From Folioceros fuciformis (taxonomy: Eukaryota): a DNA stretch of 64,000 nucleotides. Made by a program: the position numbers and the translations under genes. Every line of letters begins with the position of its first letter. Positions within the stretch are counted from its first letter, which is position 1. Positions 1 through 30,056 of the stretch are shown in pieces. Under the pieces are notes generated by a model that saw only the letters and a program-made list of their open reading frames with translations, searched no databases and was not told the origin of the DNA. Where the stretch lies: the NCBI GenBank assembly GCA_049999805.1, contig JBNGIO010003970.1:1-64000 (forward strand), in the 5' to 3' direction.

Positions 1-177
1 GCGCCGATCTACTGGTGCACCTAGACTCGAAAACGTTATTTTCAATCAAGAAAACTTCCTTAATATACTCACTTAACAGTAGGAGTGTGTCGGTCTACCA
101 GCACACGTGGACTCGAAAACTTTATTTTCAGGCGCAGCCGAGATGCAAGAGTGCGTAGGTAGACCGATGCACCTAGG
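1..177. repeat. Three degenerate copies of a palindromic core (consensus GAGTGCGCCGGT-AG/CT-ACCGGCGCACTC); same family as the 14.0-14.4 kb and 23.9-24.1 kb arrays
   Basis: gcgccgatctactggtgcac (1-20), ggagtgtgtcggtctaccagcacac (~81-105), gagtgcgtaggtagaccgatgcac (~149-172). Confidence 0.7.
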
Positions 178-724
178 GTATAGGAGTATCCTATTGTTGT
201 CTTTTCTACATCGAGCTTTTTGTTTCCTTGTGTTATTGATGTAACGAACACTTGTTTGGTTAACTACAAAAACTTGGAGATACTTCAAATGTGTCCTAGG
301 TAGACGATACGAAAGACCATAGATTGAAGGATGTGGGTGTAGTCATAGATTTAGAGGCAAACCTTGAAGAACTTGTGTTTGTGTGGGAGGGCACTATGGG
401 ATGAGTGACTGTGTATAGTGGTTTTTAGAAATGATGTCCACCTATGGCTAAATATCAAACACATTAAGTGTATTTCAAAAAGTCATTGAATCAATAAATC
501 ACCATATGTTTTGCCATTATTGTTGGGTGAATGCGCCGATCTCACTGTACCTTGTGTGGTGCTGCAATCATGTAGTTGAAGGAGGGGACCCTCCTCCCTC
601 TTATCTTCTCCCTTCCTCATCTTCAATTCCATTAAGATACTCAACGGGTACCTGCATGCTGGTGTACTCCCGCTTTGCCCTATGCGAGAGGTTGGGCACT
701 AGTATGCTCGCGTACTCTGGGGGC

Positions 725-8505: not shown

Positions 8506-10508
8506 CTACATCACCTCATTAAGCAAATCTGAAGGGCCACGAGGCTCCCACTGGGTTTCTCCTGTGCCCAACTCTGAGCTGAGAGTGACTCCCTCCATTG
8601 GATCGAAGAGGCTTCCTGACTGTTCATGTGGTCGCAATCTCTTCAATGATACTGGACTCTGCATCTCAGCAAGCCTTTGGACAATGCAGTTGACAGAGTC
8701 TGCTTGAATGGTTTCATCTCTTAAACCCATTCTGCGCCTTTTACTCCCAACGGACGCTGCCATCCCTGTTATACAAGAGTACGCATAAACCCCGAAGTGA
8801 CACAATTGCATCTTCAGCATGAGCTTTCGGATGTGGAAAATGACTGGCAAACATACCTGGGAGGACAGAAATCCTGGAACCAACCCCGGAGCTTCCCCCT
8901 GATTCCCCCACTCTATATCCAGGGACAAAAACCACCTGAGACTTGCATTCATCAAGTCCAGAGCTTGTCCCTTTTCTGCAATGCAGCACGTCAAAACTTG
9001 TCAAGCTATTCATTCCCTAATCGCTTATACTAGTCAGAAAGGACTGAAAATTCTCAGCGCCCCTCATTCAAGATGTCAGTGCATCTCGAAGTGTGGAAAG
9101 CGGACAATACTGACAACAGTGAGAAGGAACTGGAGAGGAGAAGTGCAAAGGCTGTTGGTGGATTACCTGTACATGCTATCCACAAAGTCATCTATAAGGC
9201 ATGGCCAGGCACCTGCAACAGCCAACAAGGACCAGCACCCAGTAGAGACAGATTCACGATGACAAGTCAGATATGAAAACTGGCTTGTCAGAGGACAATC
9301 CGGCGATGACCAGCACCCCTTCTGACCTTCTGGATCATAGTTACTCAGGTCTTCATGAACACTGCGGCTGAACTCCAACAGTTGCCTCCAAGTATCCTCT
9401 GATATAGCATATCGTTGGTGCGCCTGTTCTGTGAACCGTCAAAAATCTTTCATAATGCAAGGCATTGGACACAAAGCTGTGGACTGGCATGACTAAGATA
9501 AAAGAGACCATGAAAAGATTACCTGCACAAAAGCACACCACTGATCCAGCAACCTGAACCGTCCTGCTAAAGAAAGCCTCCAAGCTTCCACAGCAGTCCT
9601 CACACCTGTGGACAAAAGACACTACCAAAGCTCATCAACAGAGTTAATCAATTGCAAGATGAATGGTCCAAGAACCCCAGGGGTCTTCAGAATTCAACAA
9701 AGAATTTTTGAACCACTACCTAGATTCTTCTGCCCGCTTTCCCGACAGATGAAGAAGACGAAACGGTAGAAAATATTGAAATTACGTGTATCAAACAGCT
9801 GCACAAGCAAATGTACATACATGTACATCACCCTTATTAGACAAAAGATGCCGACTACGCATGAATGCTCTCTACACCTACCGGCACTTGCAGATTGGAT
9901 TTGAGAAGTGGCAGACCCTCTAGGGCTGCTTGCCTGGGTTATTGCCACAAACAGGTCAGAAGCACTAGAAGCATCAGATCAGAGTAGTGTTACTCATGTA
10001 ACTGCAGCAAGACATTGGACCTCTAAAACTTAGAAAAAGCAATAAGCTGGCGCATTTTCAGAAAAATCACAATGACATTGAAAGTCATTTCACTGCTCGG
10101 AAAGGGCAGGCACAAGGTGCCTCAAACCTATATTCCAAATCAATCCCTTCCTCATGAATTTCAGAGCATTAGTACTGCAGGGCAACGGGAGGAGTACCCG
10201 TTGAGAGATTCATTTTCAGCGAATTCAGCGAGAGTGGCGAGTCGCTGTTTGATCTTCCCGGGATTTTCCTCAGCCACCACTATATCTGCAATTCAGGATG
10301 ACAACCCTGTGATTCACCCCCTCAACATTGCATTCAACTAATGATTGGTCACCCGACCACTTGCAATGACCACAGAGCGCGGAACATTGATTGGCAAAGA
10401 ATCAGATCAGCATACAACTTCCAGACCTGCAAATTCAGTATAAATTTCCCATAATCCGGCATCTCTACTGGGCCTGAGAAGGGAGGGAGAAGCTGCCAAG
10501 GGCAGCAT
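8506..10508 (-). CDS. AAR3: DCN1-like (defective in cullin neddylation) protein, AAR3 type, multi-exon
   Basis: Spliced peptides LWEIYTEF; FNIFYRFVFFICRESGQKNL; AVEAWRLSLAGRFRLLDQWCAFV; ISEDTWRQLLEFSRSVHEDLSNYDPEG; AWPCLIDDFVDSMYR match the cullin-binding (PONY) domain; last exon contains GSKRRR. Confidence 0.85.
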
Positions 10509-11469
10509 GACGCGGGGAGAGAGGGCAGAGCGACGGCGGGAGATCACAGCCCTGCAGGCAGCACGCAAACGAACTACAGCAGCGGAGAGGCAGGCGACAG
10601 GAGTGGCGAACTGACAGCATGGCGCGAGTCGTGACCGAGACTGTGACTGCACCCGACCGAGGACAGAAGCCTCATTTCCTCCTTACAATGTATCTACGGC
10701 CTCTTTTAAGACTGGGAGTGGCTTTCCCTCTGCCTTGGTGTGCATTCCTAACGTTTGAAGTCTAGGATGAGTTTTATCAATTCAGACCTACGATGGCCGA
10801 ATGCCGAAGGGTTTTCTTCCTAGACCTATTCAGCGAGTCCCAAGATCAATTCAAGGCATTAAGATCGATAATCCATATAGCCTTCAAGCATGGTTATATC
10901 TCCATAGGATGAACATTATATTTTATATAGCTTGCCAGATATGTATATTTATTTCATGTCTTATCTACCCCTAAAGAGGGAGATAAAAGACGGGGAATGA
11001 TCCGGAAGGAGAAAGGATTGAAGCTTAATGACTACCAATAGCACCTAAAAATATAATGGTATGCAAGGAGAAAGGGTCTATAGCTATCACTCGCATAAAC
11101 CCTAAAAAACCGTATGGGTTTCTAATACTCCTACTGCATATATCAATACCTTAACATAGAGGACTTTACTCACTCAGAAGATTAGCAAGCATGTTCTATG
11201 TAGGGTAGGGAAATACTTTCTATTCTTGAATATGAGATGGAAAGTCTCATCTATTCCAAAAATACTTTCTATTCTTGAAAAAGAGATGGAAAGTCTTATC
11301 TATTCCAAAGATACGAAGGAATAACCTGAGCAAGGTCAAAAGGAGCACTAGCCCCTTCAAGCATCATTCTCAAAACTGCATATTGCTCCCAAATGTCTTA
11401 ATGCAAGTAACAAAAGGACTACCTACCCTACCACGGGTGCCAAAGAATCCGTTTAGCCTGCACTCGATG

Positions 11470-11990
11470 CTAATCGAAAGATCACATTAGCCATTGCTCT
11501 TCATAAAGCAATGGATACGCATTGTCGAAAGAAAGCCACTACTCATGAAGGAGGAAGAACTTCATTCCTATTACTATGATACACCTTTGAGCACTCCTTG
11601 ATGAACCTTGAAAAGTTCTTGCCTATGGTCCCATGGGTCTCCAGAGCAAAGGGGATTAAACATGCCCGTCCTATATGGGAGAATACTTAGGAACTTAGGC
11701 ACTTGCATAACCCTTCGCCACCCACCTATGGGGGTTGATAGCGATATGCTGACAATCAAATGTCTAGTGGGATCCGTAACAACCATATTAGCGACACAAA
11801 CTTGTTCCCCTCTAGTGAAAGAAAGGTCGACTCTAAGTGAAACTCCATTGTGCAAAGTATATGGATTCTCTGTGCACGGAAGAAACCCACGTTTTCTAGC
11901 CATTGAGAACATTGTTTCGCGACTAGCTGCTAATGCAACCAACTCATAAGCAATCATTAATGCCCATGAGTTGTCCATAACAGCACAATC
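11470..11990 (-). mobile_element. Decayed C-terminal restriction-like endonuclease (RLE) domain of a CRE/R2-type non-LTR retrotransposon
   Basis: RVDLSF...VANMVVTDPT, then after a frameshift ALETHGTIGKNFSRFIKEC and FFRQCVSIAL*RAMA; resembles RLE motifs R-PD, DV-V-DP, ET-G--G and QR-S-AL. Confidence 0.65.
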
Positions 11991-12049
11991 TATGGTGAGA
12001 CGACTTCCTCCTATGGCGGTTCCCTCTAGCACTTGCTACTGTCGGGATT

Positions 12050-12800
12050 GCTATGGCCCACCCCCTATTCTTGGACAACGCATCTCCATGGAAAATGTGT
12101 TGCGTAACCTATGATGGCCAAATGAACGATAAGTCCACATCGTCTGCTGGAAATGCGCAATGTCTCCTTGTATTTACTAGGTCGAAGCCCACAAATGTTA
12201 GGCGTATTGATGGATTGCGGCGCCTTAGATTACACTCATACCACCTAACTTTTAGAACCACCAGCTTGAACCCCCCTTGGAAACGCACTTGCAAAATTTC
12301 ACTCACAATTTCGTGGTAGGTGCATCGCACACCATCTGCCATCATGTACTTTGTGAGGACGCCACTATCTTGAGTGGTACGGACATTAGCATGAGGTACG
12401 GACATTAGCACGAGGTATGGACATGGCGTTCATTGTCTACTACCAAAGTTTGGAAGTGTCTGCCCCCGATTATCATATGGCAAAATGAGATCCCCACCAA
12501 GTCAGGGCCATCCATTATAGTAGTGACATCATTGGACAATTTAAGGAATTGCTCCCATAGCCCGGCTTCATGGCCCATATGCATCCAACAGCAGAAGTAG
12601 GCTATGTGGTTTTCCCTTAGGCATGTTGTACATTCGGCCTCATACATCTTCACGTTGTGGAGAACAAAGTTGTGCACGTGGTGCAACTCTGTTGTAGTGA
12701 AGAGGTATGGACATCCACTGCCTAAGGGCTCTCCATTGTGATTGATATCACCTTTTTGGGCCTAGAGGTGTGTTGACTTGGGGTACCTCTCTTGGAGAAA
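12050..12800 (-). mobile_element. CACTA/EnSpm transposase relic (C-terminal DUF4216-like region)
   Basis: DGP...IIGGRHFQT...TTQDSGV...YHEIVSEILQVRF...VVLKVRWYE...GFDLVNT...SFIWPS*VTQ, in the order typical of EnSpm TnpD C-termini; frameshifted by a short tandem duplication near 12380-12425. Confidence 0.8.
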
Positions 12801-14014
12801 TGTCTTGGCATATTGATTGCTTGTTGCTTCACATATGCCTCTACGATACTCCCCTCAGGTTTGCTACATTGCCTCATACTTTTTTTTTGTTACCATGAAA
12901 CCGCTGAATAGGGTACATCCACCTCTAAGGCCGAGTAGTGAGAGCCCAAGTAGTGAGGTGCCAACCAGCCAGCACCGTGCCTCCCCTTTTTACCAAGCCC
13001 TAAGAGCCCAAGCAAGAAGGGCGCCGGCTGACTGATACCCCTCAAATTTTATTTTATTGCTGCAATAAGCATTTTTATGGACTTCTTTAAACGTAACAAC
13101 TATTGTTTCCATCCTGTTTGTGCAGCAATTAAAACTCATGGACAAACTCTCTTGTCTCCCTAAAAGCTTCTAGCATTTTATATACTAAGTGAACAATTGG
13201 AAGGACCTTGAGCTTCATCGCAAAGGGTTGTATGTGTTTTGGCCTAAGAAATTCAAAGTGTGCTTCAGCGGGATGGACTACATGAAAGAAAACATAGTTC
13301 TATTAAAAGATGGCAGGAAGAGAAGAAGTGCAACTAAAGCAATGGAGAAAGGACAAACCACCCTAGCCTCTTCTTGAGGAACAAGAGAGAAAGAAGCTAA
13401 CAATTTGGAGGACTTGTAAGTTGTACAAGAAGTAGATAGCTTGGATTAAGAAGCTAAGAACCTTTTACTGAATGTGACTGTTGTCCTAGATTTTATGACT
13501 GCAAAGAATGAAGATGTGTATCGTTTATAGATCAATAACTAGATACATTTTGTGCTTCGTATGAATATATAAGGTATAGGGGTGATGTTTTCAGCAATCA
13601 AAAGAGATCTATTCACATGCATCATGTGACTTTAATTTTACTCTCCAACTAAAGTTTTCTGGTAAAGTGGAACATGAAACCAAGCGTTGGCTACTCGGCA
13701 CCCTAACTACTAATAAACTTTTCCATAGAATCGTATATCATTTTCACCAATATCTCTAGTTGCTCACCAGGGTGTCAAGTTTTGGAGTATGATTGGTTTC
13801 ATATACAGTGTGCCAACATCCTCCAAATGAACAATAGGACTTGCCACCCATCAAAGGGGGGCAATGGTTTTGGATGCTTTGTGTGGAGCTGATTTTGTCA
13901 AGAAGGTCTACCCCCTTTAAAAGAAGGACACAATATTCCCCCCCCCCCCCCCTCTTTCAAATTACTATTGTTTTATCTCTATCTGGTCTTGTGAGGCTAG
14001 TGCACAAGTGACAA

Positions 14015-14390
14015 TGACTTGCTTTCGACCGGCGCACTCTAGCTGATTTTTTGATAGACACCATTTTCCGGAGCATAGTGGCAAAATGGCCGCAGTGCTC
14101 CGATCTACGAGGCACTCCCACCATTTTGTCTCACTGTAGTGTAGATTGGGGAGGGATGCGCCGTTAGACTGGTGCACTCGAGGGTCTATGTTCGGAATGC
14201 GCATTTTTTCGGCACATTATGTAAAAGTGGTCGGAGTGCACCAGTTGCCCGAGGCACTTGCGCCAACCTATAGGGCTTCCGTATAGATTAGGGAGGGGGT
14301 GTGCTAGTAGACCGGCGCACTCCTGCCAGTTTGTTTGCCTTTGGATAATATTTGGGGGGAGTGCACCGGTAGACCAGCGCACTCTAGCCA
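14015..14390. repeat. Array of ~6 palindromic cores spaced ~60-80 bp, upstream of MTase copy 1
   Basis: e.g. gggagtgcaccggtagaccagcgcactc (~14357-14384) and ggtgtgctagtagaccggcgcactcc (~14298-14324); alternate spacers resemble each other. Confidence 0.8.
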
Positions 14391-14490
14391 TTGGAACTGA
14401 TTTTTTGCTCACTTAGGCTGGAATGGCATAGTTCATTGTTTGTGATTCTGCTTTTTGTGTGAAATTTCTTACTGAATTGCTTTTTGGCAG

Positions 14491-15680
14491 AAACTAGCGG
14501 ACATCACAGACGTAGAAGCGTTGCCAAAACCTTTGCATGATTATGTGTACTTTGCTAGAAACTTGGAAGCGCATGGAAGAAGAAATGCAAAGACTCGAAG
14601 ATGCAGATATGGATGCAAGATTATCGGAGTTCAGAGTCCCAAACAGTAACAATAAGACCAAATATCAAGTTATCAATTGAAACACTATGGAGATGAAAGC
14701 ATTTCTGGTAAAACAACCGTATACTCTTTGATTCACAGATTTACCTCACGAACTCCTACGACATGAATACGACATTCAACTAACAAGTGAAAAGCTTAAG
14801 GACATGATTCGAGAGTTTTCAGAATGCACCAGCAGTAAGGTGTACAGGTTGGTTCTCATGCACAGAATGGATCTGATTACACAGGCTAGGGAAGCACTTC
14901 GGCCATGGTGCAAGAAGGGGACCATTTAGACCTTAGTGTGGAAGAAGACTGACATATCCCCCAACGCAAGCGCATTAGAGACTGTCGAGTCTTTAACCAT
15001 TGGAAGTGTAGTTCACTCTAAAGCTTAAGATACAAAAGCTTCATTATTCGCGAATCAAGGATTCTTCCACGAGTTATAAGGCATGGAGCTGTGGTGAAGA
15101 AACATTTGTTCCACTCAGCAGATTCTCTAATCATCTCGTCGTATGAGAAGCCCCTTGGTTTAATGGGTATGTTGGTGAATTTGTTCTCCATTGAAGGGCA
15201 CTAGGTAGTGGATGCTTGCACAGGATCTGGGTCATTTTTAGAGTCTGCAATTTGAAGAGGAAGGCATGTTGTCGCAATGGATTTCGACATGAGATGCACC
15301 ACTTACATCATGCAACGGGTGAAAAGCATAGAGTCTTTGCTAGACTCTGATGAGAAGATCAGCACATAACTGTTCTCGCATGGCCTCGCAAAGGTTTGGG
15401 CCAAAGAAGTTTGCGTGGATGATAGTGTTGGCCATCGGATGCAAGTATTCAGTTTGTTGGGAAAAAAGGAGAGATTCTTTCACAATTAGACGACAAATCA
15501 GCAGAAGACCTTTATGCTATGACTGTATGGATGAGAATGGGACAATTCCGCCTCAGACTGTGGATGACCAGCATTTCTTTGTTCTAGATGTGAAGGGAGA
15601 TGACTTCGGAGACATTTAGGGCCAGCGCCTTAAAGACGTAGATGTAGTTGTCAATTCCGAGGCCAATCAAGATGTTCGTG
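14491..15680 (+). pseudogene. Beta-class N4-cytosine/N6-adenine DNA methyltransferase-like pseudogene, copy 1 (terminal exon)
   Basis: After acceptor tttttggcag: KLADITDVEALPKPLHDYVYF...YTL*FTDLPH (motif IV-like, 14738)...LVWKKT...YEKPLGLMGMLVNLFSIEGH*VVDACTGSGSFLESAI*RGRHVVAMD (SAM motif I at 15211); several stops and frameshifts. Confidence 0.8.
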
Positions 15681-15694
15681 TTTTTGTTTAGAGG

Positions 15695-18600
15695 TGTTGG
15701 TGAGGAAAGTGGAAGCGGATGGTTGTGGACTCCACATGCTGAGCAGACCCTGGGAAATAATAGGTTTTCTTTTTTTCTTTTTTTGATCTGGGAGTGAGTG
15801 CTGTAGAGGAAAGGTTGGGAGATTAGGTTAGAACAATAGTTAGATTTATGGTGAGTCGATAGGGTAGGTAGGTTGTGTGGTAGATAGGACACGGGCTCTC
15901 GTTCCTCAGGGTAAGGTAACGGAGGAATAGGGAACCCTAGGACGTCGTGGAAGGCGAGCCGGGGGTCCTCTGGCTGGTGCTGGTGGAAGCTGGGGGATAG
16001 GTATGGAGGTGCCTAGACCTGCCTTGGGCTCTACCCCAGGTACACTAGGGGCCGAGGATACTAAGATCAGGCAGCCATGCAGGAGGTGATTGGACTCCGT
16101 GGGTGCATCAAATCCGAAAGAGGCAGGCAACCTGGCCAGCTGCAGGCTGGCATCCCCGCAGCAGTGGAGGTAGGCCAGATGGGGGTAGGGCGCTCAGTGG
16201 CCTGTGGCAGGTCGCCGGGGCAGTCTATGATAGGCCGGTGGCCAGTTGGTGGTCTAGCGAGCTGCTAAGGAGCCTAGCCAGCAGCCCAGCGTCTTAGACA
16301 GCCAATAGCATCAGCTGCGCCAGGCAGCCAGGCTGGCTCGCTGGCCGGATCTGGGAGGCAAGCATGGGCAGCCAGCATGCTGGTTGCAAGCAGGCAATCG
16401 GGATGAACCCAAACTGGCCAGGCGGAGTGCAGGCAGCCGGTTGGGTGGCCGGGGTGGTCGGAGCTGGAGCAGGAAGGCGGTCTGGGTGGCTGGCCGGGCC
16501 AGCAGCAGCCCGATTGGCGGCCTGGCTATCAACGGTGAGGCTGCTGAGGAGCCGTCGGGCGACCCAGCAGATCAAGCCGAAGCCAGGAGCAGGCCAGGAA
16601 GGCTGGGTGGCCGGATTTGGACCAGCAGCACAGGCGGGCCAGGGCGACGTTGAATCCTGGCGGGCATGGATAGGACTGGTGGCTGGACCTAGCGGCGGGG
16701 CAAAGGAGGACAAGGCGGATCCCGCCAGCCGACTGCAGGCAAGCAGTCCAGCACGGGTTGCAGGCAGGCAGCCGGGGCTGATCTAGGCTTGTCAAAGCCG
16801 GGGCCAGATCTGGAAGCCGGCAGGTGGCAGCCAAATCCAGGCTAGGTAGGCGGCTGTTTGGTGTCGGGGCGGCCAGGTTGGTCGGCAAGGTAGGGTGTAG
16901 GTGGGCACTGCCAGAGCGAGGCCACCGCATGGCGGCTAGTGACTAGCTAGGTGGGGAGGGCCTGCTGGTTGGCAGACGAAGCCAGAAGGTTGGTTGGGAT
17001 AGGATCCCAAAGCCAAGCAGCGGCCTAGCTGGCTGTCTTAGCCAGGCAGTCGCCCGGCCTGCTAGCAGCCGGGGCGAATCCAGGCTGATCGGGCTGGTAG
17101 ATGGATCTGGCTGGGCAGCCAGGCAATCGCCTGGCCGGGGTGGATCCGGGTAGCCAGGCCTACTGGCTGGACCCTGGCCAGTCGGCGACCTGGCTGAATC
17201 GGGGCCAAAGCTGCCAGGCTGCAAGGGGCGAGTTGTCCCGGGATGGCTGCGGCTGGTCGTGGAGGCAGCCGGGCAGGCCAGGCTCAGAGCCAGGATGGGC
17301 CGGATCCTGGCCGGCAGGGTGCGCCGGGGCATGGCAGGCTAGGGCAGGCCTGAAGTAGGCCATGTCGGTGCAGGCTGGGAGCTGGATTCGGGCTAAGGCC
17401 CGGCGGGATCCAACTGGCTGGCCAGGGTGGATCTGAGCCAGGCTAGAGCCATGAGGAGGCCGAGGGCCGGTTGGTTGGTTGGCTGGCTGCTAAGGAGCCT
17501 AGCCAGCAACCCAGCCCGGCCCAGCAACAGGCAGCCCCGCAAGCGGGCCGTCTGGCCAGGTCAAGGAGGGCAGGCGGCTTGGCAGGTGGTATGGCGGGCT
17601 ACACAGGCCGCTGGGTTGGATTCGGGCAGGCAGCCTGGCTGGTCGGCAGGTAGGCGACTTGGCACCGGCGCAGGCAAGTAGCCGGCAGGTGGCAAGTTGG
17701 CTGGCTGGCGGGCCGATCCTGGAGGCCCGGCTAGCTGAGGCGCATTAGGGCCGAACCCTGGTAGGTGGGGAGAGTACTGGTTATTGGACCTGAGCGCCAG
17801 GGTCAGAGCCCAGCATAGGGATGGTTGGGCATAGATGTGCAGGGCCCCATGCCCGCTACCAGAGTTGAGCGGGGCGAGGTAGGCCGCTGGTCGCGGCTGG
17901 CTAGCAGGGGGCTGGGCCGGATCCAGATGGTGGATCCAGGCCGGCTGGCTAGTCGGCTCCAGTCGGCTTGGCTGGATAGGCGACTGGCAAGGCTGCTAAG
18001 GAGCAACCAAGCTTGCGGGCTGCCTGCAAGCTGAGGAGCAGCCAGGCCTTGCAGGTAGCCTGGCAAGGGGCTGGCTCAATAGAGGCCGGCGGCTGAGCAG
18101 CAACCAGGCAACCTAGAAGCCGGCGGGCGACCCAACAGCCCAGAGGTTGGCGGATCGAGGCAGCCAGGAGGCCAGATCGACAGATAGGCCTAGCTGGGTC
18201 AGCGAGGCGGCCTGGCAATGGATCTAAGCTAGCAGCTAGGCAGGCGAATCGAAGCAGAAGCCATTCAAGATGGGGCCGGATTCAGTCGCCCAGTATCGGA
18301 TAAAAGGGGGGTGGTTGAGCTGGAGGGGTCGCGGCCGTTTTTTCTTAGATTTCTTGGTGGCTGGACAGAAGGCAAAAAGCGGAGTCACAAAACCACTGGC
18401 CGCTGCCTCTAAATTATCCTCAGCCTTGCTCAGCTCGGGGACCTTATGGCTGGGAAGCACACTCTGGCTGGCCTCTAGTAGCATCTGCAGCAACAACAGA
18501 CAAGCTTGGTGAAGGTCTCGTCTGGGCGAGGTCAGATGGGCAAGGGGGTGGCGTTGCACCCAGGTGGCATCCAGGTCAGCCGACAGCTAATAGGGTGCAT

Positions 18601-20365
18601 GATGGCCGGATCTAGCAAGCCAAACAGACTGGCGGTGGGCTGGTTGGAACTTGGCTGAAGCATTTGGGCTGGCAGGCAAATCAAGGGAGGCTGGTGGAGA
18701 AAAGGTTGCTCGTCTCGGGGACTGAGGGTGTGCTGAGGCACCTGACTGGAATCAAATAAGGAATAAGAGGTGAGATCGAGGAAGCCTCAAGAAGTTGATA
18801 CCCTGTCACCTAGGGTCGTGGATGGAGACGTAGGAGGCGGTCCAGTGGAGAGACGAGCAAGGACTGCTGGGGATTTGACTGGGGTGATGCATTCCCTATA
18901 CCATGGCCAGCCAGTGGCCGTAATTAGCATACGGCTTGCCATCTGCGGGTAGTGGGTGGGAACCGACTCTCTACCGCAGGCGAAGAGCCTGATGCTAATT
19001 ACAACGATGATGGGTGGTGGTTGCCATTCCAGGACGCAGCGCCATGGGGCCATCCGCTCAAGGGCATCAACCCAACAGACCCTTCCAGCAGCTTGGAAGG
19101 TGGCCAGCCAAGGACGCAAGTGGCACATGGCGTTCCATCCATTAGTAGCAACCCTAGTTGCTTGTAGGCCGAAGGTGGTAGCATAGGGGTGCTACTAGTG
19201 GTGGGAAGCCCAGTGATGGTTATGTTGACAGGAATAGTGGAATGTCACCTCCACCTTGCAAGGTGCTCCTCCAGGGTGCTAGATGGTGATTTGCCGGGGC
19301 ATGAATTTTGACTGGCAGGATGGAGGGAAGGGCTTGAAGGAGGAAGACTCCAAAGAATGCAGGATGAGCTGATCCGGGAGAGGGGTGAGGTGTGTTGAGA
19401 AGCCTAGGTTAGGTCTAGGTCAGACCTAGGTCGGGTTAGGTCTAGGTCAGACCTAGGTCGGGTTAGGTCTAGGTCAGACCTAGGTCGGGTTAGGTCTAGG
19501 TCAGACCTAGGTCGGAATAGGTCTAGGCCAGACCTAGGACGGGTTAGGTCTAGGCCAGACCTAGGCCGGGTTAGGTCTAGGTCAGATCTAGGTCAGGTTA
19601 GGTCTAGGTTAGACTTAGGTCGGGTTAGGTCTAGGTTAGACCTAGGTCAGGTTTAGGTTAGAACGGGGCGTAGGATGGTTTAGGTCAGAGACAGAGATGG
19701 TTAGGTAGTTGACTCAGGTTAACCCTAGTAGAAAGAGGTGGAGGGCTAGGCAGTATAAGAGGGGGGAGACCTACCATTGAGAGGGGCTGTCTACGGTGCG
19801 ATTTCCCTGGACCTTGTGTGCAAAACTCTTGGCTTAGGGCGCTGAGCCGGTTGAGACTGAACCAAGGTCCTGATTTCCCTTGTCACTAGGGGAATGTGGA
19901 GAATCCCAAGACTGCCAAGATCCGTATGGCCGGATCCGCAAGGGCTGAATGATTCGCAGGCTAGCTGAAGTGAAGTGACAGGACCGTGAGCCAGGAGGGC
20001 TATTTAGTCCTAGCATCTACACTACGCTTGAAGGCTGTAAGGAGTGAAGCCGTTGTGTCCCAACTTCCAGGGGATAGCTGAAGCAAAGAGAGGAAGAGTT
20101 GGAGTGAAGTGCCTAGAAGTGAAGAGTGAGTTGCTGATGTGCAGGAGTGTGTGCTGAAGTGAAGGGAGAAGGGTTGAAGTGAAGAAGGAAGGACTGAAGT
20201 GGGGATCATGAAAAGTTGAAGAATTGAAGATCTAGAATGTGAGTTGTGTGAGTTGATTTGAAGATAGGCTAGGCTTCTGACCCCCTTGTTGTGTGCGTGT
20301 GGACAGGTCTATAGACCGGCTGATAGGTAGAAGCGTGAGTAGATAGCTGTGGGTGTTCCTTGACA
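15695..20365. mobile_element. Unclassified GC-rich repetitive element or relic with internal low-complexity repeats
   Basis: Recurrent gctgctaaggagc/ggctggccgg motifs over 15.9-18.7 kb; CTAG enrichment; 27-bp tandem array; no recognisable protein; approximate TG...CA ends without a clear TSD. Confidence 0.45.
19403..19660. repeat. 27-bp tandem repeat (~9 copies) ggttaggtctaggtcagacctaggtcg
   Basis: Units start at 19407, 19434, 19461 and so on; each contains a ctaggtc/gacctag inverted pair. Confidence 0.95.
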
Positions 20366-22355
20366 CTAGTTCACTCCCTTGGGAGCGAATCATAAGACTG
20401 CAATGACAATAAGGGGAGGTGTGGTCCTTTGATGTTCCTTGGATGCAAAAAATCACTCCACAATGGTGTATTATGATCATGAACATATTTGATTATGTCG
20501 TCTTTGAATATACGGTATGTAGATAAATGGTTTCCTCTCCATCAAACATAAACTTTAGTGCACCGATACACCGGCCCACTGAAAGTAAGATTCTCTTTTT
20601 TCTTAAACTTTTGGAGTTTGAAGGCCTCAGGTCCCACCTTGTCGTGGGCTTGAAGCGAATATACGGATATCGATTATGTCCAACTCACGTCAATATAAGT
20701 GGTTTTGGAAAAAGGCTAAAATATAGATATGTGACTAGGATGACATAAACTCAAATTTGCACCAAACGGGCTTTGTGGAATACGATTCTTAGGCACATAC
20801 CTTGTTTATTATTCTTTGGACCTAAAGTCTAGACAATAGTCATAAAAGCTAAGTATATCCTATCTATTTTATCGACCCCTAAGGTTCCGATTGTCCATAG
20901 ATGTTGATCTCAGAAACTCGGTGAGGCAGCAGTCAACTAGTAGACTTGAATGGGCTGCCAAAGTGGTAGGAGTGTTAGCTACTAGTGGGCTTGGGACCAT
21001 GGCGATGGGGGGTGGCATTGGTGAAGTGGGCCCAAGAGGACACTACTACAATTATCAAGTAATATTACGGTGTTTTGTTACATGATATGTTACGGTATCC
21101 AAGAAGTGTTATACCGCTAGTTACTGGTAGGGGTTTGGCCATGCAGGCCACCTATTGTAACAATAGCTGTAACACTTTCGACGTCGACCCTGCTCCTTCA
21201 TTTGAATGCCCTCCGCCTGCTAGACGCACGGTGCTCGCCGTGCCCATGCATTTATCGTATGACGTGGGGAGCGACGCCGAGGGTGCCATTTATGTTTTCC
21301 CAAGTGTTGTGGTTGGTCAGTTGATTGTAACGCCACTAGACCTTTTAGCACGCATACCAACTAACAGTACATATTATGACCACAAAGCCCCTGATGTCGC
21401 TTCAACACATTACATAAAAGGCTCATACTTGTAGACAGTGCAAGGGGTTTAGCCCTCCCTCAGACAAACAATGTGCGGCGTCCAAGAACAGTGATGTTCC
21501 GCAAAGGAAAAAGAAGCTAGCTACCCTTCTTATCATTCCTGCACGTTCACAATCTTCATTCAATATCAGCGCCTCATACATGCAATGTATGGCCTTCTTT
21601 GGGATCCAAATATCTACCCTCAAATACTTCACCTACCAGAGGTTGTGCAAGGGTTCTATGTAGAAGAGGTACCCATGGGATCGGCCACCAATCATCCCAT
21701 ACAAAAGTCCTTCGCAAAGGGCAATGCATGCCTCCACTATGCATTCAATTGCCTCTACCAACTGGAAATGAACTTCCTCATTCATAGCAAAGTCTGCGTA
21801 TGCCACGAAATGGTCCAACCTATTAATAGTGAACAACAAATGAGTTTTGTGTCTGAAGAAGTTTGCAGTGTCCAATTTCCTTTGCACAATTGTCAGCATT
21901 CCACAAAGGTTGCCTATGGATGTGAACATTGGCTTCAAGGCATGCTCGAGACCTGTCCACAAAGGTTGTCTACAAGGGTCCCACACGAGTCAGAGCTCCC
22001 TCACATAAACGTGACCTCCCCATGTCCACTTGTGGTAATGTACCTCCTCTTGCAAGGACAATCAAAGGTTTCCACATATATGCGCCTCCTTGTTGTGTGC
22101 AGTTATTCCTCGGCCAAATTGTGGATTGGTTTGCTCTACCTAAACATAAAACAAGTGCTCGTCAAGATATGTTGTGCAGTACAGCTTTTCCCTTGATGTC
22201 TCCATGAGAACAACCATCATGTTCTTTAGCCACACTATTCGCAGCTCCTAAATTGCCTTATGCATCGATTGTGCGAGTTCCCTTGCTCAGCCTAGCATCG
22301 ACAAGCCTAGTCTCTCACTACAAGCACCCCAAACCTTGACCTGATCATCAACAAC

Positions 22356-25342
22356 ATGGACAAGGAGTGGTTTTTAGTTCAGGATGAAAAACCAAGGGAT
22401 TACTCTACGTCTTGGGTTCCCGTGTTGTCATTGTGGATTAATGGCTTCAAGGACGAGAGGAATATGAGGCCGTCAGGGCAGGCTGGATTTTATGTGCTTC
22501 AGTGGATGGAGTGGAGGACGAAACTCACATAATTTTTTGCTCACAAGACATCCACCAAGCCACATTATAGACGATTACGATATGCACTCCATGATTCTTT
22601 TGAAAATTTCAAAGGTTGTTCCATGTAGATGCGAGCCTAGATGGATGAAAAGTGCGCTTTGAGGCGCTATTCAAGTTCAAGACGTGAGTATTTTATGTCG
22701 GCATAGTTAGTTAGATAAGTTCACCCTAATCTCAGTTAATTGAAGCTTTGAATACAATACAAAATGTTCACTATAAAGCCGAACCCTAATCACTTGTTTG
22801 CTGATGCTTACAAGGCCGAGGGGCAATTCACGAGGACTGTGTTGCGTTACATTGCAGAGGTGTCATCAAGAACCGGGCATTGCAAGCTAGGATTGGAGAG
22901 GACCGGGAGCAATAGAACCTTCAAGTTCCTAGTGCGGTGCAAAGAGGGAGAGAGCGCAGCGCAAGGATCACTTCCCAAACCATGCCACAGATGCAACCGG
23001 AACTATCTGAAGACAAGATCCTAATGTCGTCAGGACCAAAGGAAGAGGAGGTGGAGAAGGGGATAGGGTCTTTAGCAGAAGATAGTTTTGATGAAGCTTT
23101 GGGAGGCGGATAGTTTGGCAATGAAGAGGAAGACTCTAATGAGTCTCCCGCGGAATCACAACTCCAAAACGAAGACAGAAGGAGGTGCGCCGGCCAGACG
23201 ACGCACCCACCAAGGAGTCTCGGAAGCCTATGGTGGCATCTCCTGTTAAATCTAGGCGCAAAATTGCAGGTAGGTGGGAACAAGACTAGCAAATCGATTG
23301 TCATCCAATTCACGTTTGGGCTCTAACATTCATTGTCTTCTATAGCAGAGAATGCCTTAGTGCTCACGAAGAAACGCAAACAGCCGGCCACAAAGACTAG
23401 TGACGTGACTCTAACCCAGCAAAAGAAACGAGGGAAACACGCAGTTGTGGATTACGTGGAACCTCCAAAACCTGTGGACACTGATGCCGAAAGGCTAGAG
23501 CGTATCTCGCAAGACTAGGTCTACCTCAATTGTGTCAAGAAGAAAGCTTATGCCAAATAAATAAGGTCCACTATATTTGATTTGCATGTAGACACCTTAC
23601 ACCCTTCTTTGTTTCTCACAGCAGATGGTCAAATACGAAAGGTTGACAAAGCCTCGATGAAATCATTTGTAAGACAAATGAAGTATGGTCCAGTGAAAGA
23701 GGGAGTGTTGCCATTACTCTGTATGATTGATCCTGCACAAGCTAAAAAGAATGAAAGCACACAACGGATGAACAGTTGATGAAATTTCAACCCGCGTTTG
23801 CGAAAGTGGTAAGCCTGACATTTCATATCACCCCTTAATTAGAGCTTTGTGGTTTGTGTTGTTTAACAGTTTTGATGATGTTCAATTCAATGTGGAAGGG
23901 CGTTGGTAGAACGGCGCCCTACAGGGTGCTTTGTGGGAGTGCGCCGGTCTACCAGCGCACTCCAGGGTTTTGTGTGGGAGGGCGTCGGTCTACCAGCGCA
24001 CTCCAGGGTTTTGTGTGGGTGGGCGCCGATAGGCTGGCGCACTCTAGGGTCTTGTGTGGGAGTTTGCTAGTAGACCGGCACACTCCCAATTGATATTGTT
24101 TGTTTTTTGTTGTTTGTTTATTGATACTGTTTGTTTTTTTTCAGAAACTAGGAGACTTTGTCAACCTTGAATTGCTACCTAAGCCATTCTAGGATTTTGT
24201 TTACTTTGCTTGCAATTGGAAATGGATGGAAGAAGAAAAACAGAAGCTTGCGAGTGCAGATCTGGACGTTGGTCTTTGTGAATTTAGAGTTTTGAATGCG
24301 AATGAGAAGGTGAAGTATTAGGTAATCCAACGGAATGCACTGGAAATGAAAGCGTTTCTAGCTAAGCGTCCATACACAATGCTTTTCGCGGACTTGCCAA
24401 GAGGTCTCTAGAAATAGGAGTACGACTAATAACTAAAAAAAAAGAAAGAGCTGGAGGAAGTATTAAGCAGCTTCAATGAATGTACAAGTAGCACAATGAA
24501 AACCGGATTGTGTTCATGCATGGAGTTGATGGAATAACATAAGCGTTGGAAACATTGTGTCCATGGTGCAAGAAGGGCACAATTCAGACATTGATATGGA
24601 AGAAGACTAACATTCCTCTGAATGCAGGTGCTATAGAGATAGTAGAATATCTCATATAGGGCAATGCTGTGAAAACGGAAACATCTGTGGGTAAGGCTCC
24701 TCTCTTTGCTGAACATGGGTTTCTTCTACCTAGGGACGTTATGGGACTATTGTTAAGAAACACTTGTTTCACTTGGCTGATTCAATGGTCGTGTCGCCAT
24801 ATCACAAGGCTTTGGGCTTATTGTCGATGCTCGTACACATGTTTTCAACAGATGGAGATTGGGTAGTAGATGCATTTGCTGGTTTAGGTTCCTTTCTTCA
24901 AGCTGCCACTCAATGAGGCCAAAATGTGGTTGCGATTGACGTAGATGTTAGGTGCATTATGTATATGTAGCAAAGAGTGCATGGCATTAGCAACCTTCCA
25001 GACACGGATGAGGAAGTGACGACAAAGACGTTTCCAAGTGGTCATCGAAGTTCTATGCTAAGGAGGTGTGTGCTGACAGGAATATAGAGAGGAGAATGCA
25101 AGTATACAGCCTGCTTGGGAAAAAGGGAGAACGTCTACAACTGGCAACTGATAGACCAGCAGAGGAGCTTTATGTGACCACAATTTGGGATGAAAACTGT
25201 ACACTTCCACCCCAAACTGTGGACGCTCTAGAGTTTTCGCTGTTGGAAGTTGGAGGCGATGACTTCGCGGAAACAGAGGACCAACATTTGAAGGACGTAG
25301 ATGTCATAGTGGACTCTTGAAGCAAACGTTGAAGGACATTAA
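22356..25342 (+). pseudogene. Multi-exon beta-class N4C/N6A DNA methyltransferase-like pseudogene, copy 2
   Basis: Terminal exon from 24145 (tttttcag|AAACTAG, same phase as copy 1): KLGDFVNLELLPKPF*DFVYF...YTMLFADLPR (24391)...LIWKKT...YHKALGLLSMLVHMFSTDGDWVVDAFAGLGSFLQAATQ*GQNVVAID (24869); C-terminus DENCTLPPQTVD...DDF...LKDVDV matches copy 1. The upstream exons (~22356-23810) are tentative. Confidence 0.75.
23898..24088. repeat. Tandem array of ~5 x 41-bp units with the palindromic core, inside the intron before the MTase exon
   Basis: gtgcgccggtctaccagcgcactccagggttttgtgtggga and variants; the centre flips between TCTAC and GTAGA. Confidence 0.9.
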
Positions 25343-26356
25343 ATTATAGGATACACAGTTGGTTGTTGTCTTGTTCAATGTTTACGACACTCTTGTCTTT
25401 TTCTCATAGTACTATGTTACATTTTGTATGGCCTCTGACATCGCGTCTCCTTTTGAAATGAATGTTGACGGTAATCTCTATACATAGTCATGCTGCCGAT
25501 ATTCAAATTATCCGCGACGACAATAAAATTCAGAATGTGTTTTTCAAGTCGTTATCAAAAGTCAAGGAGCCATCTCTCTCGCATATGACTGTTCATTCTT
25601 AACATTGTAATTTATTGTAGGTAAGTGATGTGGAAACGGGAAATTTTAAAAAGCCTAAAATGGGCTATGTGGAATAAGTGCGTCAGGTGCAGACCCTGTT
25701 GATCATTTGAGCAATGGCAGCAGCTGTGAGGGCTTGTGCGCCAACTAACTACCTTCACACAATACTAGGAGCCAATGCACCTGACACCGTTGGACATGTT
25801 AGTCGAAACAAATTTTCAACCAACACAATATGGCCTTCCATAGGCAACCAATTTAGGTGGCTTCATGGTGGCAGGGAAATGGAGGACCTGAAGGCGTTGT
25901 GAATGGTCCTCAATAGGTGAGATGCGATCAGAAACGGAAAGGAGATGGAAATTCTGGCACCCGCACCAAAAAGGCAAGAGGAAAACGGGCACTGATGAGC
26001 GATAAGGTAGTGAGGTTTGCTGCACGGCAGTTCGACCAAAGCTGATTTCTTCAAGAATTTCATATATTCATACCCTATCTTGTGCCCCTGAACCCTTTGA
26101 TTGTGGACATCCATTGCTGGGTCTTCACGGAGTGCCAACACCCCGCAAGCCAGACATCCCACAGATAGGCCGATTGTGTGTGAGTTCCAACCGGATGAAG
26201 CCGACGCCGATCAGGGTTGGAATGCCTATTGATGTCCGTGCACCAACGAATAAATCCATCCCAAAGCACAAACCCCGACCCGTGTGCCAATGACGTCAAT
26301 CGGTTTATGCAAAAGGCTAGTACTGCATGAATGGAAAATTGTTCCCCATAGGCAGG

Positions 26357-26488
26357 GATTCAATCCCATCTGCTTTCATTTTTCCATGTTTTCAGGCGCG
26401 ATTCAATCCTCATCTCCTTTCATAGCTCCTTGCTATCAGGCCCGATTCAATCCCTGTTTGCTTTCATTGCTCCATGTTGTCAGGCGCG
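26357..26488. repeat. ~43-bp tandem repeat, 3 copies
   Basis: gattcaatcc...ctttcat...tcaggc[gc]cg three times. Confidence 0.75.
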
Positions 26489-28934
26489 TATGCGAAGGAG
26501 GTTTGAATGGCTAACAGCCGCAAAACGTCCCATGAAAGCATTCCTCGCGTAGTATCCACGCTTAGAAGTTTGGGCTGGTGTGTGTCAACGGTGCCCTAGC
26601 AGAAGCCCTCATTGGTGGGTAGGTTGGGAAGCCGAAGCTAAAACTCAAGCTATGGGCAAAGGGGAAAAGTGTAAGAAACGTTTTTGTAATGGCCTTCATG
26701 TTACACATGTATAACAATGTTGGTGGATTGACAATCGTAACAACGATGGGAAATTATGTTACACTGAGCCTTAATCTTGTTATAGACATGCGTAATAATA
26801 AGAGCGGTTCCCTGCAGTAGTGGGAGACTCTTCTCTTCTGATGGCAATTGGTAAGTTTTTTGTCCTCGACTGTGGTAGGTCTAAGGGCGATAAGGGTCTA
26901 GTCAGTGAGGGGGCTCGACTTTGAATCGATCCAACCAAATTGGAAGTTACAGTCTGAGGGTTTGGTGAAAGATCCACGGCCACATCGCCTGCTACAATGA
27001 CCTCTTCGACAAACTCCTAGAGTACTCGCAATACTACTCCATGGTAAAAGGTGAAGCTGTCGTCCAACTGTTGGATTGCATCTATAACCATTCTCCAGAG
27101 AGTTCCATACTCCGCTCTTCATCACGACTTCAACAAGTCATCATGGTGGGCCGCGGCTACAGCTACATACCTCCAGAGATCCTTGAGTGTTATAAAGGTG
27201 GCTCGGGCCTCTTCTCATAGCTGCAATGTGGTAACCACCTCCACCTGCATCTTGAGGAGCCCGACCTTAGAGTAGATGCTTTGGCTTCGAGCTCCCTTAC
27301 CTTGACCTAGAGCTCGCTGTTCTCCGCCCTGAGCTTTTGCATGCGCTCCAGCAACCCATTTCGCTCATTAGTCCATAGCTCCCCATGATTGTAGAGGTTC
27401 TCACGCAGTAGATTTATTTCGGTGTGCAAGGTTCGAATCTCATGTTGGACTATCTTCTCCACAACCTCGGAGTTGCGTAGTCTCACTCGAAATTATTGTG
27501 TTTGTCGGGGTGAATTCGTTCCCTTCCAAGTGAGCTCCTTCTTGGTATCGAGGGCTTGGTTCTTTCCCTTCATATTGATTGCAGTCCGCCAGATGTTGCT
27601 TGCAGGCTTTCTGCATGTTCGTCTCCCTCTTCATCCATATCATGTGTTCCTCCATATGAGCTGCCTCCATGGAGGATTCTCTGGTGGTCTCCAGCCTGCT
27701 GCACTGGGCTTGGGCTTCCTCAAGTTGCCATGCTAAGGCCGCGGTCTCCTTCGCTCTCTTTGAGCTTTGTTCCTTAAGCTTTGAGAGTAGCAAAGTTGAC
27801 CTTTGTGTCTGAGGGATAGTGACCTCTGTGGCCACTATCCCTCGGGTCGCCTACATCGCTCCCTCTGAGGTGGCTCCAAAGTCAAAATGATGGTTCGCAG
27901 GTGATCGGGCCCTCCCAAATGACGTCCAAATGGCCCGCCTCATCGCCTTTGGATCTATGATGCCCCCTTCGATTAAGTCCTCTAGGACAATAGACCAAGG
28001 CAGCGTCCACCTTGGATCGTGTTCCTCCTCTACGGGCCATGGGCTAGTAGCTAGCATGACTCCAGCCGGGGGTGGATAGGGGGAGTAGGGCCCTCTCCCC
28101 TTCTTTCTCCCATGTGGGGACAAGAGCCTCTTTACTCTGGACGGCCCTATCCCGTGCTTCTCGTTCTAATCCGATTGTGCCGCCATCTGGACCAACTCCA
28201 TTCGTTTGGTCTGCTCTTTGTTCATTAGAGTAGGTAGTAGGAGGGGAGACCGAGAATATCTGTAGGAGGAATTGAAGTGTGTATACAATCTTGAATAGAG
28301 CGATTGGTTCCATATTTAGACACTTGTCTTGAAGACCCGCAAAACCTTATGGGACTCTCTTCAAAGACATCTAGGTAGCATGTCGTTGATATGTTGTGGA
28401 AATTACAAAGTATATATCGCATATTATCATATCACATTCATCAGGATATATCGGAGATAAGGTATGAGTTAATGAACCCGGCATAGTTCGAACTTTGGAA
28501 ATTTGGAAACGGCCGCAAAACCAACACTTAAAATAAAAAAAGAAAATAAACATATCACTGGAGTCCGGCCGAAAGTCAAGTAAAAAGTTCAATAATTTGG
28601 CATCTACACCTTCTATCGAAGTTGAAGTGTGGAGTTCGTATAAAGATCGTCTTCTTGATTTGTTTGACCGAATCATCGAAGAGAAGGAAAGGGTTATTCA
28701 AAGTTTAGCAAGGATTGTGCACGACCTTCAATTGAACCTCATCCAAGCTGAAGGCGTAAGAACTTTATGTGGGCTTTGGGAATATCTATAGGAGGAATTG
28801 AAGTGTTTATACAATCTTGAACAGAGTCCTACCAAGAAGGAGAGCCCTAGCTTATATCCAAACCTTTGCTGGCTAGATGGCTAGACTATCATTATTTTAC
28901 ACAAGGGCATATGGAGCGGCACCCTAAACCCTTA

Positions 28935-29160: not shown

Positions 29161-30056
29161 ATAACGATATCCATCCAACATGTTACTATGTACTTCATTC
29201 TCTCTTACCCTCCACACCTATCTTTTCCCTATAGTTCTTAAGGAGGATAAGATAATCACTTCTTGTTTGCCCTTCGCTCTTTCTTACCCTCCACACCTCT
29301 TTTCCTTGTAGTTCTTAAGTAAGATGAGACAATCACTCTTTGTTTGTCTCTCTCAAGGCCTTTGCCCTAGCCAATTATATTCTAGAGCTCAACTACTACT
29401 AAAGCTGGAAATCATAAACACCACTCATCTCAAAGTACTAGTGCTATTATAACATGATTCTTCATAAAGCTTATGCTTAGAACAAGTAACTTGTTTCCAA
29501 AGGCAACAATAAGCATACACAAGGTAGCTCGAGATTTAAGTTTCATCATATTTTACTTATGCCATTACCATAGCAGTCCTTTATCACCCATCACTTTTAC
29601 TGAAAAAGATACTTTTTTTTGATATATTCATTAAATTCTGATTTGAGAAGTAAGTGAAATTCTTACACCATTTTTATCTGTGACGATTTATTCTTAATGA
29701 CTATTTTTATCTGTGACGATTTATTCTTAATGAAGCATAGCGATTATGTTTTGACTTTTCTTTCATTAGAAAAAAAAAACAGCTGTGGACAGTAACCCTA
29801 ACTTATGGTTAGGAGTATTAGTCAGCTCTTCCGGCTCTAGTGCCGCTCTTGCGTACATAAATGTGAGTCCTGTAAACTCTCGTGAGCTGTGAGCATGAGC
29901 TGGGAGCCTCGTGTGTGGGGAGCTGAATTTCCCTCCTCGCTGGAATTGCTGGGTTTGGTCGAAGGGTTATTGAAGGCTGGATGCCTCATGTAAGTGACCC
30001 ATGATACAGGAAGTGTCGGATCACAACGCAACAACTCGTCACTCAGAACGACGAGG

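Follow-up and report, generated by a model that had tools for sequence, protein, structure and literature searches.

Bacterial-type N6_N4 amino-methyltransferase genes are few in eukaryotes and each is of biological interest, as the N4-methylcytosine (4mC) of Marchantia sperm, the marking of transposons in rotifers and the accessory genes on giant transposons of red algae illustrate. Here we describe relics of such a gene in a 64,000-nucleotide stretch of DNA from Folioceros fuciformis, which we call the window (positions 1 to 64,000, forward strand, of contig JBNGIO010003970.1 in NCBI GenBank assembly GCA_049999805.1). Two of its regions, copies A and B, are confirmed by sequence and profile comparison to derive from a beta-class amino-methyltransferase of the M.MboIIA / M.RsrI-like kind; together with two smaller fragments, C and D, they are the dead remains of a multi-copy gene family with introns, which on balance is probably borne by a mobile element. 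A preliminary description, made from the letters of the window alone, had proposed much of this reading.

The bacterial and phage beta-class enzymes (M.MboIIA, PDB 1g60; M.RsrI, 1eg2; CcrM, 6pbd; TTHA0409, 2zie) share with the window family the order of their motifs, which runs from the catalytic loop through W-x-K, ..KP..L.. and V-L-D-x-x-x-G-S-G to an acidic residue after the next strand. Unlike them, the family has a loop of the form D-L-P-R or D-I-P-Y, not (D/N/S)-P-P-(Y/F/W), as well as spliceosomal introns and an N-terminal region of 200-550 residues in which no known domain is found. The window domain belongs to the M.MboIIA-like group-1 enzymes, for which the accessible text of Iyer et al. 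(PMC4738411) gives at least six eukaryotic acquisitions and describes such enzymes as scarce in land plants.

The closest published parallel, by analogy, is the accessory cassette of the Plavaka transposons of red algae, as far as the available text of the preprint describes it (10.1101/2025.02.11.637652). There, the accessory gene PAG2 encodes a PF01555 methylase with a SET domain and PAG3 a ParB-like domain with a 2-oxoglutarate (2OG) oxygenase, tandem arrays of inverted repeats lie beside another accessory gene than the methylase, and the cassette, which is mostly degenerate, moves also between Mutator, Zisupton and Fanzor-bearing elements. The likeness to the window family consists of a repeated, mostly degenerate PF01555-type gene in a eukaryote together with inverted-repeat arrays, and the role suggested for the cassette, binding or modifying the DNA of its own element, parallels the one that we propose below. 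In contrast to PAG2, none of the family relatives scanned has a SET domain; there is also no Plavaka, EnSpm or other transposase found nearby, and the hosts are green plants instead of red algae. PAG2 and the window family are compared here by description, not by sequence.

Two further eukaryotic systems are instructive. In Marchantia polymorpha, MpDN4MT1a and MpDN4MT1b are tandem, functional, sperm-expressed host genes with a TSPPY motif, according to the portion of the preprint at hand (10.1101/2021.02.12.428880). Like A and B they are nuclear genes of a land plant, encode the beta-class type of amino-methyltransferase and are neighbouring duplicates. On a comparison by description, the window copies differ in carrying D-L-P-H/R, in being dead and in their membership of a multi-copy family. 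The bdelloid N4CMT is a PF01555 enzyme of prokaryotic descent whose gene has introns and which targets transposons; it is presented in the sections available as a single-copy host gene with a chromodomain fusion (PMC8885841). Its structures (8s9m/8s9n) match our family profile A5 at the SAM-binding (S-adenosylmethionine-binding) end only (positions 237-292, E 8e-6). A link to Replitrons, suggested by a similar host range and an 'HLHVH' string, was rejected: in the description consulted, Replitron Rep proteins have HUQ / GYxxK motifs and no methylase (PMC10288648). Our literature searches, which did not extend to the supplements of the Bostrychia preprint (Supplemental Table 6) and of Iyer et al., found no published description of the land-plant family.

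Two decayed copies of a methyltransferase gene

The two principal features of the window are as follows.

Copy A: 14491..15690, + strand, decayed single-exon beta-class amino-methyltransferase-like coding region, with TAG at 15688-15690
Copy B: 24145..25320, + strand, decayed paralogue of copy A, with the final 102 codons still open

Apart from ends that shift slightly (to 15690 and 25320), the colinearity of the two regions is as the preliminary description had it. Eight colinear + strand tblastx segments join them over about 390 codons each (summed E 5e-98), gapped blastn aligns 14351-15645 with 24010-25304 at 61.5% DNA identity over 1317 positions (E 5e-100), and the proteins, read through stops, are 57% identical in 330 aligned columns. 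A stricter self-blastn recovers just a 126-nt piece of this match, which indicates that A and B have diverged strongly. The motifs that had been quoted are all there: motif IV is FTDLPH in A and FADLPRGL in B, followed by LVWKK/LIWKK, EKPLGL/HKALGL and, at the level of pattern, SAM-binding motif I with the acidic residue after the next strand (VVDACTGSGS...VVAMD in A, VVDAFAGLGS...VVAID in B). The claim of a common splice acceptor also stands, a pyrimidine tract and CAG lying directly before the exon in both copies (...ctttttggcag/aaactagcgg in A and ...ttttttttcag/aaactaggag in B, the stroke marking the edge).

In-frame stops number 8 in copy A and 10 in copy B, and frame breaks 4 and 3, respectively; none of the stops in aligned codons is common to both, and many lie one C-to-T or G-to-A change away from the codon of the other copy. 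Both copies are dead, as had been noted, and are themselves functionally of no consequence. Their descent is nevertheless readable from intact relatives, for tblastn with the relative P0013 finds copy A (summed E 1.3e-30) and copy B (E 1.3e-19), and P0009 also finds copy B (E 9.6e-19). Word-based protein searches with the broken fragments P0001 and P0002, which covered longer lengths only, gave no match.

Fold family of the domain

The profile search recommended in the preliminary description gives PF01555 (N6_N4_Mtase) as the best Pfam family of both copies. The C-terminal fragment of B (P0003) scores 30.5 bits against a cut-off of 26.7 (E 4.4e-7), a fragment of copy A (P0002) stays under that cut-off at 20.1 bits, and the catalytic N-terminal halves of A and B alone give no Pfam match. 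Among seven longer relatives, five pass the cut-off (P0009 with 50.1, P0022 with 47.6, P0012 with 47.3, P0015 with 30.5 and P0013 with 30.0 bits); PF01555 has no match on P0030, in which the C-terminal half is missing, or on P0024.

The fold family is seen also with profile A5, which was made from 12 family members and searched against the PDB. It aligns end to end with M.MboIIA (1g60; profile 65-288 on residues 6-256, E 2.5e-10), followed in the ranking by M.RsrI, CcrM, TTHA0409 and DpnA-type enzymes and, more weakly, N4CMT. In the alignment with M.MboIIA the motifs fall on each other, L-D-i-P-y-G on I-D-P-P-Y-N, W-e-K on W-D-K, Y-q-K-P on T-P-K-P and the SAM motif v-l-d-l-c-s-g-s-G-t-t on V-L-D-C-F-M-G-S-G-T-T. 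The circularly permuted order, catalytic motif IV, then X, then SAM-binding motif I, is found in A, B and the profile alike, which confirms the earlier motif assignment and the beta-class order. In the relatives, the SAM half follows the pattern W[IV][LIV]D..[SAC]G[ST]G ... [AV][VI][DE].

One alternative is a methyltransferase acting on RNA or protein (Trm11/UPF0020, Trm5 or RsmD-like), in which the likeness to DNA methylases would reach no further than the SAM-binding fold; assignment to an RNA or protein family was among the findings that, by the preliminary description, would overturn it. Weaker Pfam matches to TRM5-TYW2, FtsJ and Cons_hypoth95 on the same SAM-binding stretch are consistent with this alternative, and several eukaryotic acquisitions have been argued to have shifted to RNA in the accessible text of Iyer et al. 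2016 (PMC4738411). However, A, B and five of the seven relatives all have PF01555 as their best family, the M.MboIIA match takes in both the catalytic and the SAM half, the motifs come in the order of beta-class DNA enzymes, and UPF0020 and Trm14 chains reach just E 0.007 and 0.4 with profile A5. Families of RNA and protein methyltransferases thus score far lower, and we regard an enzyme of that kind as very improbable.

The same searches bear on a viral origin, in which A and B would be what is left, after decay on the spot, of the DNA methyltransferase gene of an integrated virus or phage-like element, such as a giant virus. Phages and algal giant viruses typically have PF01555 enzymes, and the relative P0022 matches the phage DNA methyltransferase families 498 (E 2e-19) and 67 (E 4e-18) of PHROGs and, by tblastn, 210 phage records. 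Yet even the best of these matches extend over just 54-61% of the protein, at about 25% identity, and coverage never reaches 80%, a pattern scan of IMG/VR with P0022, itself a weak test, shows no relative, and the family forms its own long branch apart from three bacterial sequences in a tree of 17 rows. Distant members of the family also have spliceosomal introns at conserved positions, and there is no other viral gene in the scanned intervals 10300-14490, 15721-20468 and 20469-24144. Taken together, these observations leave a viral relic hardly credible.

Intact relatives and two forms of the catalytic loop

Living members of the family were found with a profile of the aligned N-terminal halves of A and B, with X at stops, by HMMER against 1.84 billion cluster representatives. 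It matches 17 proteins at E <= 1e-3 (best 1.6e-10), 13 of which form the family and have intact reading frames. The other four were left out: P0021 matches in four short stretches, and P0010, P0014 and P0023 are long and repeat-like. In these three, two of which come from freshwater mussels, 3-9 short matching stretches surround PWCKKGT...WKKT, and the match is probably due to an unrelated repeat. A profile of the family itself has 101 matches at E <= 1e-3 among 8000 candidates scored from a 5.8-billion-protein collection, about 90 of them variants of one 144-residue first exon from metagenome assemblies. Only one member is named, the hypothetical protein MCO5548092.1 of the fern Adiantum nelumboides, and one metagenome copy is annotated as "DNA modification methylase". 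The family is eukaryotic; its sequences occur in the window genome, a fern, moss-like metagenome DNA and further assemblies.

The canonical beta-class catalytic loop is (D/N/S)-P-P-(Y/F/W), and the TSPPY motif is typical of N4-cytosine enzymes. Neither A, B nor their relatives match the canonical loop, and the S-P-P-Y type of the eukaryotic N4-cytosine writers is absent from A and B (D-L-P-H/R). Two branches can instead be told apart. All six intact close relatives that cover the site (P0008, P0009, P0011, P0012, P0013 and P0017) have D-L-P-R-G-L, as copy B has exactly, and copy A has D-L-P-H-E-L. The sister branch has D-[IA]-P-[YHF]-G-F, seen as D-I-P-Y (three times), D-A-P-Y, D-I-P-H and D-I-P-F and once as Y-I-P-Y. 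The SAM-binding half is kept in both branches (YQKP..L, GDWV[LV]D..GSG, NV.AVD).

Since D-L-P-R-G-L is fixed in six of six intact close relatives, the absence of the aromatic residue from motif IV (H/R), a caveat of the preliminary description, does not stem from decay. The preliminary description had also foreseen a pseudoenzyme should every intact copy lack a functional motif IV; the DLPR branch, at least, comes close to this. There is an analogy in the METTL14-type partners of the MT-A70 clade, where the catalytic loop is systematically disrupted and the fold kept, as the accessible text of Iyer et al. 2016 has it (PMC4738411): both are permuted amino-methyltransferase branches with a disrupted loop. 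They differ in clade, for MT-A70 (PF05063) matches one relative only, P0022, at E 0.032 and 14.6 bits against a cut-off of 23.9, and there are no MT-A70 chains among the 34 PDB matches of profile A5.

Gene structure and internally deleted fragments

The family gene is interrupted by an intron right before the methyltransferase exon, as the preliminary description had proposed from the acceptor. In the relatives both states of the junction are seen: P0030 is the spliced form (...SFGGL/RVRSVGNLEKLP), P0029 continues into the intron at the same junction, and P0013 and P0097 start with a translated pyrimidine tract that ends in Q or K where the window has ...FFQ/KLGD. In moss-like relatives the gene consists of an N-terminal open reading frame (ORF; 470-556 residues seen), short introns and then the methyltransferase exons. 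Three shorter features of the window can be placed in this layout.

Probable upstream exon of copy B: 23621..23810, + strand, ends ...LMKFQPAFAKV/gtaagc
Fragment C: 262..383, + strand, exon start (QKLGD...) joined straight to exon end (...RLKDVGVVIDLEAN...), an internally deleted third copy
Fragment D: 13117..13230, + strand, degenerate pyrimidine tract and exon start only

The exon at 23621-23810 matches residues 287-328 of the moss-like N-terminal ORF (26% identity over 43 residues; BLASTP E 6e-4 in a single comparison), and by our reading by eye its end also resembles P0030 and P0097. It joins an N-terminal piece to the last N-terminal residues, so that about 280 codons of the moss-like relatives are missing. 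Fragment C was recognised in frame 3 by tblastx of 321-383 against 15626-15688 (62% identity, 21 residues), and fragment D by its likeness to 24136-24249 of B (tblastx 42% identity over 38 residues; blastn 62.8% over 86 nt). Internal deletions seem to have given rise to C and B; such losses are common among decayed element copies and are no proof of mobility.

A ParB-like N-terminal region was also considered, since YYVLGGNHSVEA by eye resembled a ParB consensus. Searches of Pfam, PHROGs, NCBIfam and PDB sequences were negative for it; the only lead is DUF6551 at E 0.11, and hhalign against the ParB-methylase P0128 gives a probability of 0.25%, in what is a weak test with an effective number of sequences (Neff) of about 1. 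The idea was dropped.

Divergence history of A and B

The preliminary description had taken A and B for two diverged copies of one mobile family, and the pattern of their differences does not fit recent copies. Identity at codon positions 1, 2 and 3 is 0.66, 0.80 and 0.38 (332 aligned codons), that is, third positions are near saturation and first and second positions are conserved, and the Nei-Gojobori estimates are pN 0.25 and pS 0.87 (357 codons used, 19 skipped). As synonymous sites are saturated and the protein is kept, A and B must have split long ago and been selected for most of that time. To judge from these substitutions, they are old lineages that diverged under purifying selection and died later, each on its own. 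The 17-row tree joins them as sisters (100/100), with a long stem, within the DLPR branch, which places their split within the lineage of the window organism.

This history would also fit an ordinary, non-mobile host gene family with birth and death of its members, in which A to D would be an old cluster of local paralogues, later lost, a host function would have kept the copies under selection, and any extra copies would be segmental or tandem duplicates. That A and B are each other's nearest relatives and diverged under purifying selection fits such a family, as does the presence in Marchantia of MpDN4MT1a/b, described in the available text as tandem host genes of the same Pfam family. Copy number and the behaviour of related loci, to which we come below, speak against it.

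Motif arrays upstream of the copies

A repeat array shared by A and B had been noticed in the preliminary description, and this observation is borne out and extended to fragment C. A 15-bp motif, TAGACCRGYGCACTC, occurs 23 times in the 64-kb window with up to 3 mismatches, against 3.65 expected, and none of 100 shuffles reaches 23. Three short arrays, directly ahead of C, A and B, account for fifteen of the 23 occurrences.

Motif array of TAGACCGGCGCACTC: 23907..24085, both orientations, 7 occurrences, in the intron just upstream of copy B
Motif array, same 15-bp motif: 14025..14384, both orientations, 6 occurrences, just upstream of copy A
Motif pair, same 15-bp motif: 83..174, no strand assigned, two copies, upstream of fragment C

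The motif is often paired tail to tail, which gives a 26-bp palindrome, perfect at 23937-23962. It is near letter-perfect while neighbouring synonymous sites are saturated, and this suggests that it is functional and tied to the gene. No motif arrays were seen in the moss-like loci.

Copy number and evidence on mobility

Contigs of three DNA runs from the same organism (X1, X2 and X3) were aligned to 12500-26500 of the window at 80% likeness, and they show that the A-type unit is repeated and is itself split by a later insertion.

Insertion: 15721..20468, no strand assigned, 4.7 kb, G+C-rich, high-copy, splits the 3' flank of the copy-A unit and lies outside the family
Continuation of the copy-A unit: 20469..20905, + strand, multi-copy, summed depth 161 against about 11, with a degenerate palindromic motif at 20555-20581

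Contigs of all three runs connect 15720 directly to 20469, which makes 15721-20468 a later insertion into an A-type unit that runs on to about 20700-20900. The insertion has a G+C content of 56-67%, a summed depth of up to 3765 against about 11 and, at 19407-19658, a 27-bp tandem repeat of 9.3 copies. A fourth run, X4, which we guess to be RNA, covers within 12500-26500 the insertion alone and is uninformative on expression.

Multi-copy status, which the preliminary description had inferred from A and B alone, is directly visible in run X1. The summed word depth, which is not a copy number, a point to be held against any count drawn from it, is 10-14 in single-copy parts and 214-401 over copy A (14368-15768). 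At A-type variant sites, 10-12 other contigs per listed site share an alternative letter. At position 14678, for example, all 10 of 10 contigs have C, which turns the TGA of copy A into CGA, the Arg codon of B. The A-type contigs include about 250 nt of non-coding 3' flank across the nested insertion. Together this is evidence for roughly ten or more copies related to A in the same organism. Copy B has a depth of 58 in its first bin and of about 20 beyond.

Seven plant-derived, moss-like metagenome loci from the non-DLPR branch (L001-L007) offer a second view of the family. They are A+T-rich (29-39% G+C) and 85-98% identical in nucleotides over up to 4.3 kb, introns included. In L003, L005 and the inverted L007, the homology ends at one base (...GTTTCAAAGTTTACATTG) with unrelated sequence beyond, and the end of the L001 contig coincides with this common 3' end. 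The moss-like loci behave as a dispersed repeat of at least 4.3 kb with a defined 3' end. Individual loci have been altered further: a plant long interspersed nuclear element (LINE; DUF4283, zf-RVT) interrupts the family gene at about 2000-8800 of L005, L004 has an internal tandem rearrangement at 1-2020, and L007 has an inverted extra copy of the final 180 nt of the unit at 8386-8565. Ten ORFs were scanned for a transposase in these loci, whose contigs are short, and only the nested LINE was seen.

Several observations weigh against the view that A to D are dead members of a family carried by a mobile element. Six-frame Pfam searches of 10300-14490, 15721-20468 and 20469-24144 show no Pfam domain of any kind, and thus no transposase or other protein domain of transposable elements; no terminal inverted repeats came to light around A, B and C, and none at the 3' end of the moss-like unit when its reverse complement was sought, all matches being at chance level; and neither a target-site duplication nor, in any locus, the 5' end of the unit was found. 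The 3 kb upstream of B are single-copy, and all four pieces share the + strand and a span of 25 kb, which fits a local gene cluster as well. A and B shift frame within the same 11 nt (15068-15078 and 24726-24736) with the same net shift, and on either side of it their divergence is of the coding, third-position type; this common frame shift is hard to reconcile with selection after the split. Two points concern function instead. Motif IV is without its first proline and, in the DLPR branch, without the aromatic residue, so that methyltransferase activity may be lost, and on this sequence evidence DNA methylation by the DLPR branch is doubtful. The N-terminal region has no domain recognisable in Pfam, PHROGs, NCBIfam and PDB sequence searches, which makes DNA binding a guess.

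The preliminary description's mobile element family with an intron-containing methyltransferase is accordingly upheld as to copy number, intron and decay, and falls short on transposase, inverted termini and target duplication. These last absences in the scanned stretches, the single-copy DNA upstream of B and the common strand of A to D would equally suit the non-mobile host family introduced above. That family accounts less well for the unrelated host genes between C and D/A (PCFS4 on the + strand and a DCN1-like gene on the - strand), for an A-type unit present in 10-12 other contigs at >=80% identity with its non-coding 3' flank, for the sharp 3' boundary and unrelated flanks of the moss-like relatives at three loci, and for the internally deleted look of C and B. 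We therefore hold an ordinary host gene family to be unlikely, though the most serious of the alternatives, and keep to the view that the relics belong to an element-borne family, in which "mobile element" is likely but unproven. We found no convincing likeness among the downstream flanks of A, B and C.

Surroundings of the copies

The preliminary description placed the copies in a plant transposon island, and this does not hold: the surroundings are gene-rich. Apparently intact host gene exons encode a PCFS4-type zinc finger (5008-7134, +), a Cullin-binding DCN1-like protein (9163-9438, -), an AAA ATPase with a nucleolin-binding domain (29994-31930, +), a DEAD-box helicase (43724-45985, -, an ORF of 745 residues) and TFIIS (62959-63810, +). 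A CACTA-type transposase relic at 12109-12761 (- strand), our first impression of that region, received no confirmation from Pfam. In single-copy DNA upstream of B there are long open frames at 21495-22196 (+) and 21633-21989 (-) without a Pfam match. A 48-bp tandem repeat of about 5-6 copies at 693-992 reaches a run of 10 N at 983-992, a probable assembly gap.

Run X3, which is DNA of the same sample, has a large excess of C>T (719 places) and G>A (388) differences from 12500-26500 of the window. These differences resemble bisulfite-type data, and the methylation state of the copies could be readable from them.

Proposed history and significance of the family

We propose that selection on the protein long maintained separate A-type and B-type lineages, that the A-type would then have multiplied in the window genome until there were about ten further copies or more at >=80% identity, and that individual insertions, A and B among them, would have decayed through stops and small indels. 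Such a course is typical of genes borne by mobile elements. The product of the family would bind the DNA of its own element, the putative substrate, and its likely binding sites are the arrays that precede C, A and B, with their 15-bp motif and 26-bp palindrome. Members of the D-x-P-Y branch would methylate adenine at N6 or cytosine at N4, and those of the DLPR branch may be SAM-binding partners that are catalytically altered or inactive.

More boldly, we speculate that this may be an undescribed family of mobile elements in non-seed land plants, whose signature and possibly only gene is a spliced, bacterial-type beta-class amino-methyltransferase with a remodelled loop that would recognise the element's own 26-bp palindrome arrays and mark or shield that DNA. 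Among green plants such a family would correspond to the PAG cassette of red algae, and host writers of 4mC or N6-methyladenine (6mA) such as MpDN4MT1 may have arisen from it; in this full form we hold the proposal to be unlikely.

The relics in the window are of value as a lead to the intact members of the family and not in themselves. What they lead to is a separate and poorly annotated family of green plants with living members, conserved introns, two variants of the catalytic loop and repeat-like behaviour. If some of its members are active, they would be candidates for DNA methylation other than 5-methylcytosine (5mC) in ferns and mosses. An inactive DLPR branch would be a natural example of a methyltransferase fold that serves a selfish element by binding DNA or SAM.

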